NCBI GenBank assembly: GCA_965140585.1
Contig: OZ223272.1
Location: 493,881-557,880 of the forward strand
Length of the DNA stretch: 64,000 nt
Origin: Spirochaetia bacterium
Lineage (GTDB): Bacteria; Spirochaetota; Spirochaetia; UBA9216
Direction: 5' to 3'
Shown: in pieces, positions 30,921-64,000 of the stretch
Layout: each line of letters starts with the position of its first letter
How positions within the stretch are numbered: position 1 is the stretch's first letter
Made by a program: the position numbers and the translations under genes
The notes under the pieces: generated by a model
What the model was told of the DNA's origin: nothing
What the model saw: only the letters and a program-made list of their open reading frames with translations
The model's database searches: none

Positions 30921-32558
30921 ATGCTTAATAGAAATTTTGTAGAAACCATAAAACAGAGCCTTACTGAGAACTGGGACAGGCCCTGCTTTTCAAATTACGG
31001 TGAAGAGATCTTTTACTACCGTGACGTTGCCGAGAGTATACTCACTTTTCACGAAGCCTTCAGGATAAACGGAATAGAACCCGGCAATAAGATTGCAGTC
31101 TGCGGAAGAAATTCCGTCAACTGGGCAAAGACATATCTGGCCGCTGTGACATACGGCGCTGTAATAGTACCGGTACTCCCGGACTTTTCAGCAGCAGATA
31201 TCACAAACATTATCAATCATTCTGAAGCCCGCTTCTTCTTCGCTGCAGATTATATCTGGAAGAATCTCAAAACGGAAGAAATGCCGAATCTTGAGCTGGT
31301 AATCAACCTTGAAGATTTCGCAATAATAAAAGCCGGCGAAAAGTATGATTCAGAGGTACTTCTTCACGCCCGTGCAGCACTTGAGAAGAAATACCCCGGC
31401 GGACTCACCCCGGAATCGGTACAGTTTGATGAAATTTCAAACGATACCCTCGAATCAATAGTTTATACATCAGGAACAACCGGATTTTCAAAGGGTGTAA
31501 TGCTTAACCACAACTGTATGATTGCAAACGTTGACTATGCGCAGCATAACATAGCGCTTAAAGCCGGAGACAAGATTGTCAGTTTTCTGCCGGTTGCACA
31601 CAGTTTCGGCTGCGCATTCGAGTTCCTTTTCCCTTTCAATACGGGCTGCCATATAACTTTCCTGCACAAGAGGGTTTCTCCTCAGCTGATAATGAAGGCT
31701 TTCGGGGAAATCAGTCCAAGGCTCATCCTTTCAGTTCCGCTTGTTATTGAAAAAATATACTTCAAACAGCTGAAACCGATTTTGAATAAACCATATGCTA
31801 AACTCCCGTTTATAAAGCAGATCCTCGACAGGGTCATTTACAAGAAGCTCACCGCTACTTTCGGCGGAAACTTTATATCAATTGTCATAGGAGCAGCAGC
31901 GTTCAACCCGGAAGTTGAAGCCTTCCTCAGCAGGATCAAATTCAGATTTACTGTAGGCTATGGAATGACCGAATGCGGACCGCTTATCAGCTACATGCCC
32001 TGGGATATCTATAAAAGCGCTTCTGCAGGCCGTATTATAAATCACCTCGAATGTAAAATAGATTCTGAGGATCCGCAGAATGTCCTGGGTGAAATATGCG
32101 TTCGCGGCGAGAACGTAATGCTCGGCTACTATAAAAATGAAGAGGCAACCGCCCAGTCCATCGACAAGGACGGATGGCTCCATACCGGAGACATGGGAAC
32201 CCTCGATCCGGACGGAACAGTCTATATCAAGGGCCGCTGCAAGAACATGCTGCTGGGACCTGCCGGACAGAACATCTACCCTGAAGAAATTGAAGCAAAA
32301 CTGAATAATTCAGACATTATTGCAGACTCTTTGGTAATATCACGTGATCACCGGATCATCGCAATCGTATACGCAGATCCTGACTACATCGAATCAAAAA
32401 GTCTTTCCGATGCCGATGTGGATAAGGCATTATATGATGCAATGAAAACACTAAATAAAGAACTTCCTTCCTATTCAACTCTGGTAGCCATAGAAAGAAG
32501 GAAAGAGGAATTCCAGAAAACACCTACTGCAAAAATTAAACGATACCTCTACGAATAA
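30921..32558 (+). CDS. Long-chain-fatty-acid--CoA ligase (AMP-binding)
   Basis: YTSGTTGFSKGVML, GYGMTE, GWLHTGDMG, IKGR. Confidence 0.92.
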   Translation: MLNRNFVETIKQSLTENWDRPCFSNYGEEIFYYRDVAESILTFHEAFRINGIEPGNKIAVCGRNSVNWAKTYLAAVTYGAVIVPVLPDFSAADITNIINHSEARFFFAADYIWKNLKTEEMPNLELVINLEDFAIIKAGEKYDSEVLLHARAALEKKYPGGLTPESVQFDEISNDTLESIVYTSGTTGFSKGVMLNHNCMIANVDYAQHNIALKAGDKIVSFLPVAHSFGCAFEFLFPFNTGCHITFLHKRVSPQLIMKAFGEISPRLILSVPLVIEKIYFKQLKPILNKPYAKLPFIKQILDRVIYKKLTATFGGNFISIVIGAAAFNPEVEAFLSRIKFRFTVGYGMTECGPLISYMPWDIYKSASAGRIINHLECKIDSEDPQNVLGEICVRGENVMLGYYKNEEATAQSIDKDGWLHTGDMGTLDPDGTVYIKGRCKNMLLGPAGQNIYPEEIEAKLNNSDIIADSLVISRDHRIIAIVYADPDYIESKSLSDADVDKALYDAMKTLNKELPSYSTLVAIERRKEEFQKTPTAKIKRYLYE

Positions 32559-32581: not shown

Positions 32582-32615
32582 CGGGAGCATCCTTCACTAA
32601 GGGAGCTCCCGTTTT
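32582..32615 (+). terminator. Terminator after the acyl-CoA ligase gene
   Basis: CGGGAGC...GCTCCCG followed by TTTT. Confidence 0.65.
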
Positions 32616-32624
32616 ATATAATCC

Positions 32625-32653
32625 TTGACCCCTTCATAAATAGAATATAAAAT
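32625..32653 (+). promoter_or_regulatory. sigma70 promoter of the riboswitch-controlled operon
   Basis: TTGACC(32625)-17-TAAAAT(32648), placing +1 near 32660 immediately before the riboswitch. Confidence 0.7.
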
Positions 32654-32766: not shown

Positions 32767-34257
32767 ATGCTCAAAAAATCGATTCTTGTTCTCTTATTGA
32801 TCTCAGCCTCAGCAAGCGTCAGTGCTCTTGATTTCACCCTGAATGGAAAACTCTGGAAATCTTTTACATCTGAAAACCTTCATACACTCAGCTATCCGGT
32901 ACCTGCAGAGGACAATAAGGCTGTTGGAATATCTATCGATGAGCTCTTCCCTCCTATGTATGAAGCATGGAAAATAAATATTTCAATTGACGGCGGCCTG
33001 ATAGAAAAAAAAGAAAATCAGCTTGCCGATCTGCTTCCCCGGATTTATCTGACAGAAACAGATTCAGGATGGGCACTTAAAGGTCCCGGATGGACTGTCG
33101 AGGATGTTCAGGGCATTGATTTACGAGGTGAAAAGCTGATTACCTCAAAGCTTGAAATATGGACAAACTGGGAAGGTGAAGATCTTCTGAAAGAAGAAAT
33201 CAGCAGATATGCAGAGCTGCATAACATCAGCATAAACACGGTTTCCGTTCCCCGGCCCGACTCCAAACTCATTGCCGTTTCAGGCGGAGGAGGAAGCGTT
33301 CCCGATATAATAATGGTTCAATCGACCTATATGGAAAGTCTTTCGAAATCGGAAAGTATACAGAACCTTGATTACATGTATCCGGAAGGACTTATAAAAG
33401 AAGGCCGGGAGGTTTTCAGTCTTGACGGAAAAACCTGGGCGGTCCCATTTTACTATGATGCCCAGATGATGTTCATCAACACCGGGCTGATGGATACTCC
33501 AAAAAACAGCTGGACAACGAAAGACTATGAAACTTATGCCTCGCAGTTAAAAGCCCGGGGAATAATTCCGTCGGCATGGAACGCCTACTCATCATCTTTT
33601 CTTATCCCCTTTCAGATAAGCTTCGGTAAAAAGACGCTGATTGAACCTGACGGCTCGGTAATCATAAATGATGAGGCAAATATCAGATCACTTAAGTATA
33701 TTCTTAGCCTGCAGGGGAGGGGCCTGATGGAGCCGATGGAACGTGATGCCATGACATCGATGTTTGTATCAGGAGATGTTGGTATGATCATAAGCGCCTC
33801 ATACAGCATTCCCTATTTTGAAAAGCTTGGCATACCCTTTGAGGCAGTGCCGCTGCCGATCAACTCCGAAACCGGAATCCGGCTTTCAGGCCTTCTTGAT
33901 TTCAAGGGTTTTGCAGTGCCTAAAAAAAGCCGCAATACCGCCGCAGCCGTCAGACTGATCGAATATCTCTGCGGAGCAGGCGTTCAGCAGAGATTTACCG
34001 CAGCCGTTTCAAAACTTCCCGCATCAGAAGAAGCACTGAAGCTTGCCGCAGATGCAAACAGATACATGAAGCAACTGACCATCGGATCGGAAACCGGGAC
34101 AATAATCCCACCGGATCAGGCTTTTGGAATATATAAGAATACAATGTGGAAAATGCTTAGATTCGCGCTTTCAGGAAGGATGTCTCCTGAAGCTGTCTTG
34201 GAACAGACTCAGAAGATTATAAATAACAACTTACAGCAAAAAAAGGAGATAGAATGA
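32767..34257 (+). CDS. ABC transporter extracellular solute-binding protein (sugar-type, family 1) with an extra N-terminal domain
   Basis: Signal peptide, about 100 aa extra domain, then LEIWTNW, GGSVPDII, DGKTWAVPFY, F.SG.VGMI and P.S motifs of MalE-like proteins. Confidence 0.85.
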   Translation: MLKKSILVLLLISASASVSALDFTLNGKLWKSFTSENLHTLSYPVPAEDNKAVGISIDELFPPMYEAWKINISIDGGLIEKKENQLADLLPRIYLTETDSGWALKGPGWTVEDVQGIDLRGEKLITSKLEIWTNWEGEDLLKEEISRYAELHNISINTVSVPRPDSKLIAVSGGGGSVPDIIMVQSTYMESLSKSESIQNLDYMYPEGLIKEGREVFSLDGKTWAVPFYYDAQMMFINTGLMDTPKNSWTTKDYETYASQLKARGIIPSAWNAYSSSFLIPFQISFGKKTLIEPDGSVIINDEANIRSLKYILSLQGRGLMEPMERDAMTSMFVSGDVGMIISASYSIPYFEKLGIPFEAVPLPINSETGIRLSGLLDFKGFAVPKKSRNTAAAVRLIEYLCGAGVQQRFTAAVSKLPASEEALKLAADANRYMKQLTIGSETGTIIPPDQAFGIYKNTMWKMLRFALSGRMSPEAVLEQTQKIINNNLQQKKEIE

Positions 34258-35651
34258 AACTGACTGTAAAAACATTATTATCAGTTCTGCTGCTTGCCGC
34301 ACTGCTCATCAGCGGCTGCACCACAGCATCACAAAGCCCCTCAGGCCTTGTAATTGAAGAAACAGAAGCTGACGCAGTCGCACATGCGACCCCTAAGGGA
34401 ACCGGATGGATAATCAGTATCAGCGGTGTCAGAGAAGATGAAATTTGGGAATCCAATTTCGAAAAATGGAAGGAAATGGAAGGCTCGGAATACGGTGAAT
34501 ACATGTTCCAGCTTAAAGGTGAAGATACAAGCTTCATGGCCATCCCTTTTAAAAACATCATTGCCATGGTTGATGATCCTGATGCGACAATGCCCTACGC
34601 ATTTGATGCTGAACTTTGGAAATCAGGATATCAAATAACTTTTACAGCTTCCGACGGATATTCAGCTACAATCAACACTGCAGATTTTGCAGTGGAAGAT
34701 CTCTACATAGCAGATGCAATGCGGGGTGAAAAAGTAGCTCCCATGTTGACCGGAAATATTTCAACTCAGTTCTGGGTAAAAGAACTCGCTTCAATTACAG
34801 CAGATCTTAAACCGGTTTCACTTGCTGAAAACAATTTTGAACTAATCCTTGACATCGGCGAAAAACATGCCGTTAAAACAATCGCAGAGCTTGAAAAGCT
34901 TCCCTACTACATTGAGGACAAGGGGAACTACACCAACAGCTATGACAATAATTTCCAGTATATATGGGGAGGAGTAAAGATTGTCGATCTTATAGAAGAA
35001 TATGCATCGCTTACACCTGAAATGACGGTAGTAATCGAGGCAATGGACGGTTATGCCATGACCTACAGTGCTTCGCAGCTTCTGGACAACTCTGACGGCG
35101 ACTGGATTCTTGCCTTCAAGGAAAACGGCGAATACATGCCCGAAGATCCCGGTTATATCCGGCTTGTAAAGGTAGGACCCAACAACCCCAATATCACAGG
35201 ACATGTTTCTGCACGGATGATAAAGAAGATCATCATCAAGGATGTAGCATTCAAGGATTTCAGCCTCGATCTTATACAGAACGGCAGGACTGAGGTAATG
35301 GACAGACAGACTCTTCAGAGCGGAGTTACAACTTCACGAACAAAGGTTGCCTTCTTCAATAAAAAGGCCGGTGAGGCTGTGGAATACCTGGGCATTCCCG
35401 TATACGTGCTTCTTGAAAGGTACACCGACTATAAGACTGTAACCGTACAGGCCGCCGACGGATACTCTATTAGTCTCAATGCCGCCGAGCTTGCAGGAAA
35501 CGATGATGTAATTATTGCAATGTTCTACGGCGATGAGAGCGAACTTTCCGAAAGTGAATTCCCGCTCGTTATAGTGTGGGATCAGGATGCAGCCATTGTA
35601 CCGGCAGGAATCAAGGCGGTAAGAAACATTTCTGCCCTGATTCTTGAATAA
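34254..35651 (+). CDS. Lipoprotein with three tandem molybdopterin-oxidoreductase-like domains
   Basis: Lipobox LLISGC; three repeats containing ASDGY/AMDGY/AADGY and ending WVKELASI/SARMIKKII/AVRNISALI; WGGVKIVDLI, GYIRLV and FPLVIV resemble the Oxidored_molyb fold; ATGA overlap with the upstream gene. Confidence 0.75.
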   Translation: MKLTVKTLLSVLLLAALLISGCTTASQSPSGLVIEETEADAVAHATPKGTGWIISISGVREDEIWESNFEKWKEMEGSEYGEYMFQLKGEDTSFMAIPFKNIIAMVDDPDATMPYAFDAELWKSGYQITFTASDGYSATINTADFAVEDLYIADAMRGEKVAPMLTGNISTQFWVKELASITADLKPVSLAENNFELILDIGEKHAVKTIAELEKLPYYIEDKGNYTNSYDNNFQYIWGGVKIVDLIEEYASLTPEMTVVIEAMDGYAMTYSASQLLDNSDGDWILAFKENGEYMPEDPGYIRLVKVGPNNPNITGHVSARMIKKIIIKDVAFKDFSLDLIQNGRTEVMDRQTLQSGVTTSRTKVAFFNKKAGEAVEYLGIPVYVLLERYTDYKTVTVQAADGYSISLNAAELAGNDDVIIAMFYGDESELSESEFPLVIVWDQDAAIVPAGIKAVRNISALILE

Positions 35652-37673: not shown

Positions 37674-39206
37674 TTATTTTTTCTTGCTGTAATGCTGCAG
37701 CAGCTGAACAAAATAATAACTTTTCTTGTAGATTGCTGAAAGACGCTCATCAACCAGACCATCCATCGCATTTTCAATTTCTTTCCAGTTTGTTATCAGT
37801 TCATGCGGTTTTTTATGAAAATCTTCAATAACCATCTTCAGACTTTTTGCAAGAGCTATGAGGTGAAGACCGGTTGTATTTATCATACCCGCGGCTTCCT
37901 GATTCACATCCTTAAGCTCCTTCCTGAGTTTGGTTATATGTGATTTATCCGCATCACGCCTTTTCAGAAGCTTCGAAAGTTCGGCGCCTTTTGCCCCTTC
38001 TTCAGAAAGGTTCTCATCAAATTTTACAACCTCATCTGCAACAGCCATCAGTCCATAGAAAGCTTCCGAAAGCTGCTGTGAGTTTATATTTGTTGTCCAC
38101 TTCCCCCTGATTATCAGGATGTCGCTTACTTCTCTGATATCCTTCTTGCAGTAATCGACAAGGAAGGCTTTCAGATAGTTCATCGGTGCTATGTAAATAT
38201 ATCCTCCCAGCATCTTCTTCTCGAACGCAAGGTTAGCCTTTTCTGTATAGTGATTCATTCTTGATACAGCAGATGTTCCGAAAACCTTGAAGGCAAGATC
38301 ATCGAGCTTACTCTTCTGCTGTTCTTTCATGATTTTCTGAATTATAAGCTCAGCCTGGCTTTTAAGCTTTGTAAGATAGTCCTCAACTATTCTGTTTGCC
38401 GGCCGGGCGACTTGATAACTGTAGGAAGGGTTTTTATCAATGCTCTTTATTATCAGTTCAAGAACCTTTGAGGTTCTTACATCCCTGAGTTTTCTCAACT
38501 GCTTTGTCCATTCACTTCTGTTAAGCACTTCCGCACCCTTATATGCGCTAAGGACATCAAAAAGGTCATTCCAGTCGGCATCCAGTTCAAGAAAGGGTAT
38601 CAGCGTCAGAAAGTCCTTAAGATCTTCGGATACATACTCGCCGTTTATATCCTCAAATCTGGGGCTGTAATTAAAATCATTTTCAGGGAATCTGGAATCA
38701 AATTTCCGCAGGAAGAAATAAAAGTCAAATGAAATAAAATCAACGAAGACAGCCATAAGGTTATAAGTTGAATTAATTGATTTCACCTTGGCTGTATCAA
38801 AAAATGAGAAGAAATTAACCAGATTGTTTTTAAGTTCATCAGCCACAGCCTTGATATTACCGTTATTCTGCTTGATAGCTTCACGAATCGCAGATTCATC
38901 AAAACTGTCACGGATCTCAACCTGTTTTTCATTAAGGGAATTCTCAATAATTATTGTTTTCAGAACGACTGAAGATTCGGCGTGATCCAGAAGAAGTTTG
39001 GTGGGTCCGATAACACGGTAAAAATCATAGAAGAACTTTGCCATAGCAGAGAGTGCTTCTACTGATTTAGGTTTGTAAAACTTGAATTTGCTCTTTTTAA
39101 GTTGTTTGTCAATCTCTTTAAGGAGCCGCTTCTTTTCTTTTTCAGGATCAGCGGATCTTCCAATTAGAGACAGTATCTTTTCAAGAAAACCGGAACCATC
39201 GCTCAA
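37674..39206 (-). CDS. DUF5312-like conserved spirochaete protein
   Basis: FLEKIL.L...DPEKEKKRLLK.I.K.L N-terminus and FDFYFFLRKFD; GGAGGG RBS with TTG start. Confidence 0.7.
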   Translation of the reverse strand: MSDGSGFLEKILSLIGRSADPEKEKKRLLKEIDKQLKKSKFKFYKPKSVEALSAMAKFFYDFYRVIGPTKLLLDHAESSVVLKTIIIENSLNEKQVEIRDSFDESAIREAIKQNNGNIKAVADELKNNLVNFFSFFDTAKVKSINSTYNLMAVFVDFISFDFYFFLRKFDSRFPENDFNYSPRFEDINGEYVSEDLKDFLTLIPFLELDADWNDLFDVLSAYKGAEVLNRSEWTKQLRKLRDVRTSKVLELIIKSIDKNPSYSYQVARPANRIVEDYLTKLKSQAELIIQKIMKEQQKSKLDDLAFKVFGTSAVSRMNHYTEKANLAFEKKMLGGYIYIAPMNYLKAFLVDYCKKDIREVSDILIIRGKWTTNINSQQLSEAFYGLMAVADEVVKFDENLSEEGAKGAELSKLLKRRDADKSHITKLRKELKDVNQEAAGMINTTGLHLIALAKSLKMVIEDFHKKPHELITNWKEIENAMDGLVDERLSAIYKKSYYFVQLLQHYSKKK

Positions 39207-61149: not shown

Positions 61150-62715
61150 ATGAAACCCTATTCACTTTTAAGAAAGCCGAATTACTGGATCACCGGATTT
61201 CTGATTTTTATAGTTATATTTCTTATTCTTAAAACAAGTATAAAACCCGAAGGCTTTGTACTGGAAGAAAACTGGGAGCTTGAGCTTAACGGGCAAAAAA
61301 CAGAAGTTGAAATCCCCGGACAGATGTCTGTTGAGACTCTTACAATGGCAAGGTACATAAACACCTTCAATATTGACGACGCGTCGGAAAAAGCAATAGT
61401 AATCAGCCGGATTCCAGGGAATGCTCTTAAAATATTTTTAAACGGAAATCTTATCGGCAGTATCGGAGATGCAAATAATCCAACGGCCAGGTTCTGGAAT
61501 ATGGTTCAGATATTTCCAGCCTTCGGGAATCTTAAACAGGGAAGCAATACCCTGGTGATTGAGCAGTATACCAATATTACGCACGGAATGACCTCGGCTC
61601 CGATGATACTCGATTATCAGAGAGCACTTTCAAAAACAAACACTGCCAACTTTTTTTATGTTACCCTGATACGGCTCATGATCGGAGCGGGGCTGCTTGT
61701 AGGTACAATAATGCTTCTTATAGCGGCTCTTACTGAAACCGGCAAAAAAACTTATATCCTCATGGGCTGTGCAACTGTTTTCGCGTCCATCTACTGTATT
61801 GATTATCTTTATTTTGAACACCTGTTTAATCAAAGCTTTCTGCTTCTAAGCGATAAAATACTTCTGCTTTCCGGATTTCTGGCTTTAAACATTTTCACAG
61901 CAGGCGTTAACAACATAACCATCAACAGCAGGGTGATAAGGTATACTCAGTATCCCTTAAGCATAATCCCCGCCCTCCTTTTCCTTTTCAGCCCGACACT
62001 TCCTGAACTGATACGTTTTTTTCACTTTGTTAACCCTGCCCTGATTATCAACGGAGTCTTCATTGCTGTAATGCTTTTACATCTTGAAGAGAAGGATTAC
62101 ATAATGCTGATTCCCTCGATACTGATCCTGTGTACCGTTGGAAATTCTTTCTATGTCAGCATGATTAATCCGAATGCTCCCTACACAATTCAGTACGGAG
62201 CTCTATTCAGTACAGTCTTTTTCAGTGCAGACCTTATAATCAAGTATACAAATATTCACACCGAAAACTCAAAACTCCGTTATTTTGCCCAGACAGATCC
62301 GTTAACCGGCGCCTTCAACAGAAACATAATTGAATCTATAAAAAGGGAAAACTGGACTTCTGCGATAGTCGTTGATTTCGATAATTTCAAGGAATACAAC
62401 GACAACTTCGGCCACAAGCTTGGAGATGAACTGCTGTGCAGTTTTGTAAACCGCGCAAAAGAGAATCTACGGACTTCAGACCTCGTTATCAGAATAGGCG
62501 GTGATGAATTTCTTATTCTGCTTAAGGAAAATGATGCGGCCAACGCCGAAACTATTATCAGAAGAATCCACGACCAGTTTTATTACGAATACGATGCAGA
62601 GTTCTCCTATGGAGTTCAGACTATAGAACATGATATAACCAACTCATTTCACAAGGCAGACATCTCTATGTATCAAAATAAGCGGGCGAGAAAAAAACGT
62701 AATACCCCGTCCTGA
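61150..62715 (+). CDS. Membrane diguanylate cyclase, paralog of 58178-59746
   Basis: Same architecture (KPEG..L.E.W, R.PGN.L..F.NG, YC.D.L.F, IQYG..FS); DPLTGAFNR, RTSD I-site, RIGGDEF. Confidence 0.9.
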   Translation: MKPYSLLRKPNYWITGFLIFIVIFLILKTSIKPEGFVLEENWELELNGQKTEVEIPGQMSVETLTMARYINTFNIDDASEKAIVISRIPGNALKIFLNGNLIGSIGDANNPTARFWNMVQIFPAFGNLKQGSNTLVIEQYTNITHGMTSAPMILDYQRALSKTNTANFFYVTLIRLMIGAGLLVGTIMLLIAALTETGKKTYILMGCATVFASIYCIDYLYFEHLFNQSFLLLSDKILLLSGFLALNIFTAGVNNITINSRVIRYTQYPLSIIPALLFLFSPTLPELIRFFHFVNPALIINGVFIAVMLLHLEEKDYIMLIPSILILCTVGNSFYVSMINPNAPYTIQYGALFSTVFFSADLIIKYTNIHTENSKLRYFAQTDPLTGAFNRNIIESIKRENWTSAIVVDFDNFKEYNDNFGHKLGDELLCSFVNRAKENLRTSDLVIRIGGDEFLILLKENDAANAETIIRRIHDQFYYEYDAEFSYGVQTIEHDITNSFHKADISMYQNKRARKKRNTPS

Positions 62716-62721
62716 CAGGGG

Positions 62722-62988
62722 TTAAACACAGCTGTTATAAACAGCCCTGAAATCATCTGCCGTATAGCCTTTGGCCCCCCACTGCGCGGCAAGCGTCACA
62801 GCCTGCTCAGTCATCGTATCAATATCCGGATTATCTATACCAAGCTCCTTCATTGAAAGCGGACAGCCTATTTTTTTTATCCAGGATTCGTAAGCTGAGA
62901 TGACAGCTTCACAATCCGGCTGTCCTTCCATCATCAGAATATCTTTTCCGAACTTGATGATGCGGCTGCTTAGTTCATTTTTTTTTAA
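62722..62988 (-). pseudogene. C-terminal fragment of an iron-containing alcohol dehydrogenase (butanol dehydrogenase-like), truncated at the junction
   Basis: Frame reads KKNELSSRIIKFGKDIL...WIKKIGCPLSMKELGID...YTADDFRAVY, typical of the Fe-ADH C-terminus; the N-terminal three quarters are replaced by AT-rich DNA. Confidence 0.7.
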
Positions 62989-63752
62989 TTATCATATTTT
63001 TTATCCTGCTTTTTTTATCTATTGTCAAAATTTATGTGACTAATAAATTCATTCTTAAGCTTTGGAATATGTTCATTTTATAATATCGTAACAAAATTAT
63101 TAAAGACTATTTAAAGAAAATCCCTTATTTTAAAACTATGTTAATGATTTTAAAACACGAATTATTACTAATATTTAATACATTTATGATGACGATTAAA
63201 AATAAGTGAAATAAAAACCTATAGAATAACAAAAGAAAGGATTATTAAATTATTTTGGGAATGCTATAGAAAAATTAGGGGACAAACTTACAAGTTAAAC
63301 GTAATTTATATCATCCAAAATTGATAAAAAACTGTCTTCTTAAGCACAAGCCAATCAATAAAGTACTAGTCCTCCGAAAAGCAATTTTTATTATGACAAT
63401 AACTTAAAAGTTTGGGTTATAAACGGAAAACCTGCTGAAGAAACTGAAGATGTTGGTGCTAAGATTATTAACAAAGAGCAAATTTAGAATAAAGATAATC
63501 AATAAAGCATTTTTCCCCCACCAAAAAAAATAATTTCTTAGAATTAGCGTATATTAGTTTTAAATATAATTTAGTTCTAGATAAAGAAGAAAAAAAAGTA
63601 GAAGAAGAAGCACAAATTATTTAAAATACTGCAACTAAGATTTCTAATCCTTTTGGAAAACCAAGCGATTAAAATTAAAAGGCAAGCGGAAAAGTAACTA
63701 CTGGAAATCGTTAAAAAAAAAAAATATCTAATAAAATAGATATTTGGCTTGA
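62987..63752 (+). CDS. Fragment of a eukaryotic Sec16-like gene read in genetic code 6 (TAA/TAG=Gln); foreign DNA
   Basis: About 190 codons without TGA but with about 19 in-frame TAA/TAG; translates to IFYPAFFIYCQNLCDQQIHSQALEYVHFI...PPKSNFYYDNNLKVWVINGKPAEE...FPPPKK; candidate 26-nt GTA...TAG intron at 63549-63574; 3' end uncertain. Confidence 0.6.
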
Positions 63753-64000
63753 ATTTTATCATAAAATTATTAAAAATTATTATTATTATTTTTAATTTAC
63801 TTTTATTTGTTGAGTACTTTTTTAATGTACTGTCAATATTTTGCTAAATTCATAAAATATTTTGCCATAACGAAAACATTTTTCAAATCCTTAAAACTAT
63901 TCTTATGATATGACTGCTTTGAAAAATTCTTTTTTTTCACCTTAAATACAAACAAATAAATTTGATTATTTAAAATAAAGACCAATGGTTTCAAATGAAA

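Follow-up and report, generated by a model that had tools for sequence, protein, structure and literature searches.

Introduction

Molybdoenzymes of the SUOX family, including sulfite oxidase, SorA, SorT, SoxC and MsrP (YedY), need a cysteine ligand to the molybdenum, and the periplasmic ones are usually exported by the twin-arginine translocation (Tat) pathway with their cofactor already loaded. In the TRAP system of Treponema pallidum, the lipoprotein TatT is found beside the binding protein TatP, and the two have been proposed to work jointly at the membrane. A non-catalytic form of the SUOX fold is represented by PruR of Agrobacterium, Vibrio and Klebsiella; the report on this protein (PMC11194511) describes a truncated, Cys-less SUOX fold that acts by docking onto a membrane partner and whose cleft fits a small pterin, with Y104 and W160 stacked on either side of the pterin ring and N102 hydrogen-bonding to it, and is too short for, or likely unable to hold, the molybdenum cofactor (Moco). 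Here, we describe a gene for a 465-aa lipoprotein (34254..35651, + strand) in a 64,000-nt stretch of the genome of a Spirochaetia bacterium (GCA_965140585.1, contig OZ223272.1, positions 493,881-557,880, forward strand; this whole stretch is referred to as the window), whose product is predicted to be built from three modules of this fold and which is encoded between the binding protein and the permease of an ATP-binding cassette (ABC) importer.

In our view, the product is, on balance, probably a non-catalytic accessory lipoprotein of a spirochaete MalE/MalFG-type ABC importer, which would bind a ligand, dock the binding protein, or both. An initial annotation, made from the sequence alone, had proposed that the protein is exported empty and serves as a multivalent receptor or carrier for Moco. 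This proposal is partly supported and proved half right, in that the protein appears to be non-catalytic and is probably a binder, with nothing pointing specifically to Moco. In the searchable literature we found no description of an architecture that combines a tandem SUOX lipoprotein with an ABC importer, the nearest account being that of PruR.

Three tandem modules of the SUOX fold

The lipoprotein consists of three homologous modules of about 135 aa each, termed R1 to R3 (Table 1), in agreement with the initial annotation, which had listed three repeats of about 140 aa, each with an A-x-D-G-Y motif. This motif occurs exactly three times in the protein, at residues 132, 263 and 400. The terminal strand [KR]-x-[IL]-x-x-I, also ascribed to every repeat, is exact in two of the three (KELASI at 176 and RMIKKI at 321), but repeat 3 reads RNISAL and ends in Leu instead of Ile. 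When the single sequence was compared by Smith-Waterman alignment with 300 shuffles, none of the latter reached the scores of R1-R3 (z 6.5) or R2-R3 (z 8.7); similarity between R1 and R2 was not significant by this measure, with 65 of 300 shuffles reaching the score. The modules were also excised from 76 related loci, keeping those of at least 80% of the reference length (73 for R1, 75 for R2 and 72 for R3), and addition of the window gave family alignments of 74, 76 and 73 sequences, respectively. Profile-profile comparison of these alignments with hhalign connects all three pairs: R1-R3 at 99.3% (E 1e-20), R2-R3 at 95.5% (E 1.4e-8) and R1-R2 at 86.6% (E 4.4e-6). The three repeats are genuine homologues and do not resemble one another by chance.

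The Pfam family Oxidored_molyb (PF00174) scores above its cut-off on repeat 2 only (residues 235-333, 43.8 bits versus a cut-off of 24, E 2.6e-11), and the lipoprotein is the sole match to this family in the 4.85-Mb genome. A search of the PDB with the lipoprotein sequence alone gave nothing relevant, profile searches gave weak matches only (7kom at E 0.32 and plant sulfite oxidase at E 0.21), with no relevant match for R3, and the ESM Atlas returned only clusters named after PF00174. Since the sequence and profile searches of the PDB were weak or empty, a comparison of folds was needed. In the AlphaFold2 model of the lipoprotein (53-sequence alignment, mean pLDDT 88.6), the three modules share one order of secondary-structure elements. 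Foldseek matches this model to sulfite oxidase, SorA, SorT, SoxC and nitrate reductase at E-values of about 1e-6 and to PruR proteins of 134-148 residues at TMt 0.68-0.73. In VIA-align, R3 matches PruR 7kom (Z 16.2, rmsd 2.4, 124 aa) and the neopterin-bound PruR 7rkb (Z 15.8), and R2 matches PruR 7kp2 (Z 15.4 over 133 aa); among the molybdoenzymes, the model matches sulfite oxidase 3hbg (Z 15.8), 2blf (Z 15.3) and YedY 1xdq (Z 11.9). The likeness to MsrP and sulfite oxidase that the initial annotation expected of the structure is thus seen in the prediction. R1 alone gives no strong VIA-align match, only Eap-type ones at Z ~5, and its fold is assigned through its hhalign homology to R3. As modelled, the modules have the SUOX fold without a Mo-ligating Cys and match PruR as well as they match molybdenum domains, which makes a molybdenum enzyme very unlikely. 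Among solved proteins of this size, the ligand-binding PruR proteins are the nearest, which supports the earlier view of a non-catalytic binder rather than an oxidoreductase.

The N-terminus (MKLTVKTLLSVLLLAALLISGC, beginning MKLTVKTLL) is a Sec-type lipoprotein signal without an RR pair, and Cys22 in LLISGC is the only cysteine among the 465 residues; both features had been read correctly from the start. Databases label such proteins 'molybdopterin-dependent oxidoreductase' or 'YedYZ catalytic subunit', the kind of automatic naming that the initial annotation had warned of, and with no Cys to ligate molybdenum these oxidoreductase labels are almost certainly wrong. The absence of further cysteines is specific to the window's clade, as 53 of 73 R3 sequences (72 orthologues plus the window) carry a Cys-His pair in repeat 3; no conserved Cys column was found family-wide at the hairpin tips in the orthologue alignments. 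Two Sphaerochaetaceae-type orthologues, P0071 and P0072 (loci L016, L017 and L019), have two additional cysteines at reference positions 318, in the G-H-x-S stretch of R2, and 458, the R3 counterpart of the Trp in the sulfite-oxidase 'KW' pair. These cysteines might be joined in a disulfide between modules or make up a ligand site.

R2 is the best conserved module, with a mean column identity of 63% versus 55% for R1 and 58% for R3, and it is the most sulfite-oxidase-like of the three. All 76 R2 sequences have D265, D298, P299, G300, R303, S319 and M322, and the invariant polar and aromatic set also includes Y267, M269, Y271, W284, K306 and H317; in R1, the invariant residues (74 sequences) are W52, G58, D107, W122, G125, Y126, G135 and G167. 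With the SUOX molybdoenzymes the lipoprotein shares the core fold (Z 12-16), the PF00174 match and, in R2, the D-G, D-x-G-[YF]-x-R and G-x-x-S-x-[KR] stretches, the G-H-x-S-x-R-M of R2 aligning with G-A-R-S-V-K-W of plant sulfite oxidase. Unlike these enzymes, it has truncated modules in tandem and lacks the Cys ligand, the Tat signal and the dimerisation domain, for which a Pfam scan of the lipoprotein gave no match. Two-module forms of about 325 aa, consisting of R1 and R2 only, are found inside the same cassette (L076:6001-7014; proteins P0085, P0093 and P0096).

The invariant polar and aromatic residues of R2 may well form a ligand pocket. In the family profile, the pterin-contact stretch of PruR, L-N-D-Y (L-N-x-Y), is aligned with M-D-G-Y of R2, so that the PruR Asn corresponds to Asp in all modules; this Asp is kept in 72 of 74 R1, 76 of 76 R2 and 73 of 73 R3 sequences. 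The Tyr counterpart of PruR Y104 is likewise kept (Y136, Y267 and Y404), with Phe in 41 of 73 R3 sequences. The D-G pair is shared by SorA and plant sulfite oxidase, both of them catalytic, so that it identifies the fold and not the binding of a ligand or a pterin. At the hairpins, R1 has K88-G89 and R3 has K371, the equivalence of these hairpins to that of PruR being deduced from secondary structure. Inspection of the pocket repeat by repeat, which the initial annotation had suggested, gives a divided answer at the level of alignments: Asp and Tyr/Phe are kept in all three modules, but the Pro-Trp motif of PruR is absent.

A conserved component of a CUT1-type importer cassette

The lipoprotein gene has a GGAG Shine-Dalgarno sequence, and its ATG overlaps the TGA of the binding-protein gene upstream (ATGA). 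At its other end, the gene shares 8 nt with that of the permease, which starts with TTG. The MalE1/MalE2 structures of Thermotoga maritima are the nearest match (E 3e-15) to the core of the binding protein, residues 127-485. The protein has a type-I-like signal and is taken not to be a lipoprotein itself, since there is no Cys within its first 30 residues. Judged by sequence, the combination of a family-1 binding protein with two permease domains of the MalF/G type fits a CUT1-type (MalEFG-like) importer. We know of no counterpart of the lipoprotein in the CUT1 systems described so far.

The search for related loci returned the 76 loci mentioned above, nearly all of them from Spirochaetota genomes or metagenome-assembled genomes (MAGs). 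A binding-protein orthologue lies directly upstream of the lipoprotein gene in 68 of the 69 loci with enough flanking sequence (the exception being L073), and in 70 of 71 a permease orthologue follows it downstream; in L068, the one exception, the permease gene is located upstream and on the other strand. With the R2 profile, the gene was detected in 19 of 61 genomes of relatives, the window's own counted, and in 8 of 10 within its own family. A phylum-wide search with the full-length profile, in which 5 candidates were scored per genome, found it in none of 300 other genomes (E <= 1e-20); this result conflicts with the 76 loci and the 19 of 61 genomes and, because so few candidates were scored, is treated as a technical miss and not as absence. 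Apparent fusions of the binding protein with the lipoprotein in L038, L050 and L076 are artefacts, as a stop codon separates both genes in each, and they therefore provide no Rosetta-stone evidence.

Beyond the three genes, no consistent flanking gene was found in a Pfam tally of 220 open reading frames (ORFs), made up of the nearest two per side (109 upstream and 111 downstream; L004 omitted as a near-duplicate). The tally includes ABC_tran (10 of the 109 upstream ORFs, 3 of these with a MalK OB domain), Patatin (10), SpoU (7), MCPsignal (6) and AMP-binding (5).

Table 1. Features of the lipoprotein gene and its cassette, in coordinates of the window; residue numbers refer to the protein concerned.
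Feature	Position	Strand	Basis
Signal peptide and lipobox (LLISG-C22) of the lipoprotein, no twin-arginine	34254..34319	+	Sequence; Cys column shared by most of the family
Predicted disordered tether, residues 23-45	34320..34388	+	AlphaFold2 pLDDT < 50 for residues 22-45
Module R1, residues 49-187; A-S-D-G-Y 132-136; hairpin K88-G89	34398..34814	+	hhalign to R3 99.3%, E 1e-20
Module R2, residues 193-332; A-M-D-G-Y 263-267; DPGYxR 298-303; G-H-x-S-x-[RK]-M 316-322	34830..35249	+	Pfam PF00174, VIA-align
Module R3, residues 334-465; A-A-D-G-Y 400-404; short form without haem motif	35253..35648	+	VIA-align; hhalign to R1 and R2
Residues 357-361, G-V-T-T-S in the window	35322..35336	+	Column is (C/G)xxCH in most orthologues
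Solute-binding protein, 496 aa	32767..34257	+	SBP_bac_8 E 2.4e-19; SBP_bac_1 E 1.1e-13
N-terminal additional domain of the binding protein (residues 20-128), predicted degenerate SUOX fold	32824..33150	+	AlphaFold2, VIA-align
Fused two-domain ABC permease, 669 aa	35644..37653	+	BPD_transp_1 twice; best matches GlcU, MalF, MalG, UgpA, UgpE
Pair of sigma-70-like promoter matches within the 208-nt gap that precedes the binding-protein gene	32593..32653	+	Weak; each 10/12 positions

A fourth module on the binding protein and its possible docking

All orthologues of the binding protein carry an N-terminal extension of about 105 residues. Modelled alone with AlphaFold2 (52 sequences), this domain reaches a pLDDT of 95.0, and VIA-align matches about 100 of its 109 residues to SoxC (Z 9.7), sulfite oxidase (Z 9.6) and PruR (Z 8.5), the next unrelated chain being at Z 3.3; the corresponding Foldseek E-values are just 0.2-0.5. 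Sequence-level homology to the lipoprotein repeats is not significant, hhalign to repeat 2 giving a probability of 5.8%. By its predicted structure, the domain is a fourth, more degenerate SUOX-fold module that shares the fold of the lipoprotein modules without significant sequence homology to them.

When the binding protein and the lipoprotein were modelled together, the complex scored 0.53 (runs 0.53, 0.52 and 0.57) versus at best 0.04 in three controls, with at least 57% of contacts in common between the runs and a partner pLDDT of at least 83. Of 80 solved complexes, 58 reach the mark set for such predictions, as do 2 of 110 mismatched pairs. A score of 0.60 or less that still passes it was obtained for 7 of the 80 solved complexes and for both passing mismatches; the prediction thus lends weak support to a complex of the two proteins. 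As the binding protein has no lipobox, docking of its N-terminal domain on the tethered lipoprotein would be a plausible means of retaining it at the membrane.

A haem-c-type motif in most orthologues

Residues 357-361 of the lipoprotein correspond to a column that reads C-x-x-C-H in 34, G-x-x-C-H in 19 and neither in 20 of the 73 R3 sequences. The sequences with neither motif include the window and its close relatives, and the motif was seen among loci L020-L079. An insert of about 20 aa, DDPxYAPH[KR]Q..., accompanies the motif in 53 of 53 motif-bearing sequences and is absent from 19 of the 20 motif-less ones, including the window. Cytochrome-c assembly was surveyed in 20 of the 73 genomes, picked by hand with a preference for long contigs: a CcsA/CcmC-type assembly gene (PF01578) is present in 9 of 10 genomes with the motif, the genome of L021 being the miss, and in 2 of 10 without it (L014 and L012), and none was found in the window's genome. 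Because the relatives are not independent and the MAGs are incomplete, this co-occurrence is suggestive.

From these patterns, most family members would be mono-haem c-type cytochrome lipoproteins, and the window's clade appears to have lost both the motif and the insert. Loss of the haem site from the window's lineage implies that the retained, core role of the cassette does not need haem. In contrast to c-type cytochromes, the lipoprotein of the window has no CxxCH. A weak local match to the NCBIfam family NF041762, 'GEGP motif-containing diheme protein' (residues 235-277, E 1e-6, 28 bits versus a cut-off of 300), suggests that a SUOX-like piece and c-type haems have been combined elsewhere too; the lipoprotein is not a member of that family, as its score is far below the cut-off, and differs from it in the lack of CxxCH.

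Comparison with PruR and TatT

PruR (7kom, 7kos, 7kou, 7kp2 and 7rkb) is the closest described relative. Both it and the lipoprotein modules have a degenerate SUOX fold of about 135-150 aa without a Mo-ligating Cys (Z 15-16 for R2 and R3) and an aligned N/D-x-Y motif, and both proteins are Sec-exported and periplasmic, with a membrane partner, PruR being non-catalytic, as the lipoprotein appears to be. However, PruR is a single module from Proteobacteria, whereas the lipoprotein belongs to Spirochaetota and has three modules in tandem, with a fourth predicted on the binding protein. The partner also differs, being a DcpA-type diguanylate cyclase/phosphodiesterase (GGDEF/EAL) for PruR and an ABC importer here. 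The lipoprotein further lacks the Pro-Trp motif and probably the stacking Trp, and most of its orthologues have CxxCH or GxxCH. TatT is a functional analogue only: like the lipoprotein, it is encoded beside a binding protein, but its fold is of the TPR type and its transporter is of a different class.

Proposed role and alternative readings

In the model that we favour, the protein would be a periplasmic lipoprotein tethered to the membrane, holding three Cys-free PruR-like modules on a tether of about 25 residues and acting as a third conserved component of the importer beside the soluble MalE-like binding protein and the fused MalF/G-like permease. The modules, chiefly the conserved R2 pocket, would hold a small ligand, dock the non-lipidated binding protein, or both, so that substrate as well as binding protein would become concentrated near the permease. 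Module 3 would in most lineages bear a covalent haem c as well, at a site that the window's lineage, which lacks cytochrome-c assembly, would have lost.

Several results weigh against this model. The genes flanking the cassette gave no substrate clue in the 220 ORFs tallied. The window's cassette contains no ATPase gene, and no genome-wide search for one of the MalK/MsiK type was made. The score of the predicted complex amounts to weak support. The Pro-Trp hairpin motif of PruR is not kept, L-P-W of 7kom standing opposite a-g-n of R2, and the position of the 'KW' Trp of sulfite oxidase is occupied by Met322 in R2 (76 of 76 sequences), by Asp or Glu in R1 and by variable residues in R3; if this Trp is the counterpart of the PruR stacking residue W160, as we take it to be, the pterin sandwich of PruR would not be preserved. 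Finally, a possible redox role is suggested by the orthologues with haem, and binding alone would not account for it.

A rather unlikely alternative is that the modules act as carbohydrate-binding modules, so that the lipoprotein would capture glycans and feed oligo- or polysaccharides to the MalE-like binding protein. To our knowledge, which does not draw on a specific search, there is no carbohydrate-binding SUOX fold, and this counts against such a role. The closeness of the binding-protein core to Thermotoga maltose/maltotriose-binding proteins (E 3e-15), that of the permease to GlcU, MalF, MalG and UgpA/E, and the many invariant aromatic residues in the modules are all in keeping with it, and so is the company that related modules keep elsewhere. 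An exhaustive search of representatives gave 216 proteins at E <= 0.001, and six large ones picked from 150 listed for a Pfam scan (P0139, P0150, P0153, P0154, P0157 and P0162), giant surface proteins of 1100-2100 aa, all carry several PF00174-like modules, three of them together with PKD, SLH, CARDB or DUF2341 domains (PKD in P0154 and P0162; SLH and CARDB in P0157). These giant proteins indicate that the SUOX-like module is a widespread extracellular building block. However, glycoside hydrolases are not enriched among the 220 flanking ORFs, and the haem motif of the orthologues is hard to reconcile with glycan capture.

Capture, uptake or sensing of a pterin other than Moco, with monapterin, neopterin or biopterin bound as in PruR, is unlikely. 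It draws on the fact that PruR proteins, the neopterin-bound form among them, head the structural matches of this size, and on the alignment of the PruR L-N-x-Y contact motif with x-D-G-Y; the niche would also be open, since according to a 2026 review (PMC13259868) there is no known pterin transport system. Against this, PruR's Trp lid and Pro-Trp motif have not been retained, the D-G pair is a fold marker that catalytic SorA and plant sulfite oxidase also have, and the transporter components belong to the sugar (CUT1) class. Improbable, too, is an extension of this idea to a new type of importer, in which four PruR-like modules would capture a cofactor-like heterocycle such as a pterin and covalently bound haem c would sense or set the redox state of the ligand in most spirochaetes.

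The modules could instead be a pure tether or scaffold that binds no small ligand and anchors the non-lipidated binding protein through contacts between like modules. A binding protein that lacks a lipobox and yet has a module of the same fold speaks for this reading, as does, weakly, the complex prediction (0.53 versus 0.04 for the best control), but the invariant polar and aromatic residues of R2 seem to resemble a ligand pocket more than an interface, and we consider a mere scaffold distinctly unlikely.

The proposal of the initial annotation, an empty multivalent receptor or carrier for Moco or molybdopterin, is highly improbable. We know of no periplasmic use for free Moco. One part of the proposal has held, as the protein appears to be exported by Sec as a lipoprotein despite the presence of a TatC gene in the genome, and a SUOX fold without Cys would suit an empty receptor. 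Two residues of the sulfite-oxidase G-x-R-S-V-K-W stretch, Ser319 and Arg/Lys321, are also retained in R2, and a MoaC gene is present, so the genome makes Moco. No result, however, points to Moco as the ligand, and three speak against it: modules of PruR size lack the long cleft needed for Moco, according to the PruR report (PMC11194511); the gene is fixed in a MalE/MalFG-type cassette whose transporter parts are of the sugar type; and MoaC is present in 6 of 10 other cassette-bearing genomes but was not found in the remaining 4, one of which is a single-chromosome assembly, so that the cassette and Moco synthesis do not go hand in hand. A true molybdoenzyme of the periplasm, as implied by the database name and by the above-cut-off PF00174 match on R2, is scarcely credible for a protein that has no Cys beyond the lipobox, no Tat signal in a genome that encodes TatC, modules of about 135 aa that are PruR-sized and not Mo-domain-sized, and no match to the dimerisation domain.

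Implications

A systematic misannotation is corrected, the name 'molybdopterin-dependent oxidoreductase' being given to a family that appears unable to ligate molybdenum. The locus also extends the non-catalytic branch of PruR to a new phylum, to a new architecture, with tandem modules and a module that is predicted to be fused to the binding protein, and to a new partner, an ABC importer. Taken together, the motif, the insert and the pattern of assembly genes suggest that SUOX-fold modules can bear haem c. An importer that did capture a pterin and carry haem c would be without precedent, both as a pterin uptake system and as a cytochrome c of SUOX fold; a pterin ligand would make the question of a pterin transporter, as it is put in the review (PMC13259868), directly testable with this cassette.

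Flanking genes and minor features of the window

Two genes next to the cassette are conserved solely within the window's clade, in L004-L007 and L025: an AMP-binding, acyl-CoA-synthetase-like gene (30921-32558) and a DUF5312-like gene on the opposite strand (37674-39206, -). Promoter-like sites are as frequent as expected by chance, with 11 in the region versus a shuffle expectation of 10.2, and terminator counts are likewise at chance. Towards the end of the window, at 62001-64000, the G+C content drops to 0.319, versus 0.41-0.51 elsewhere in the window.

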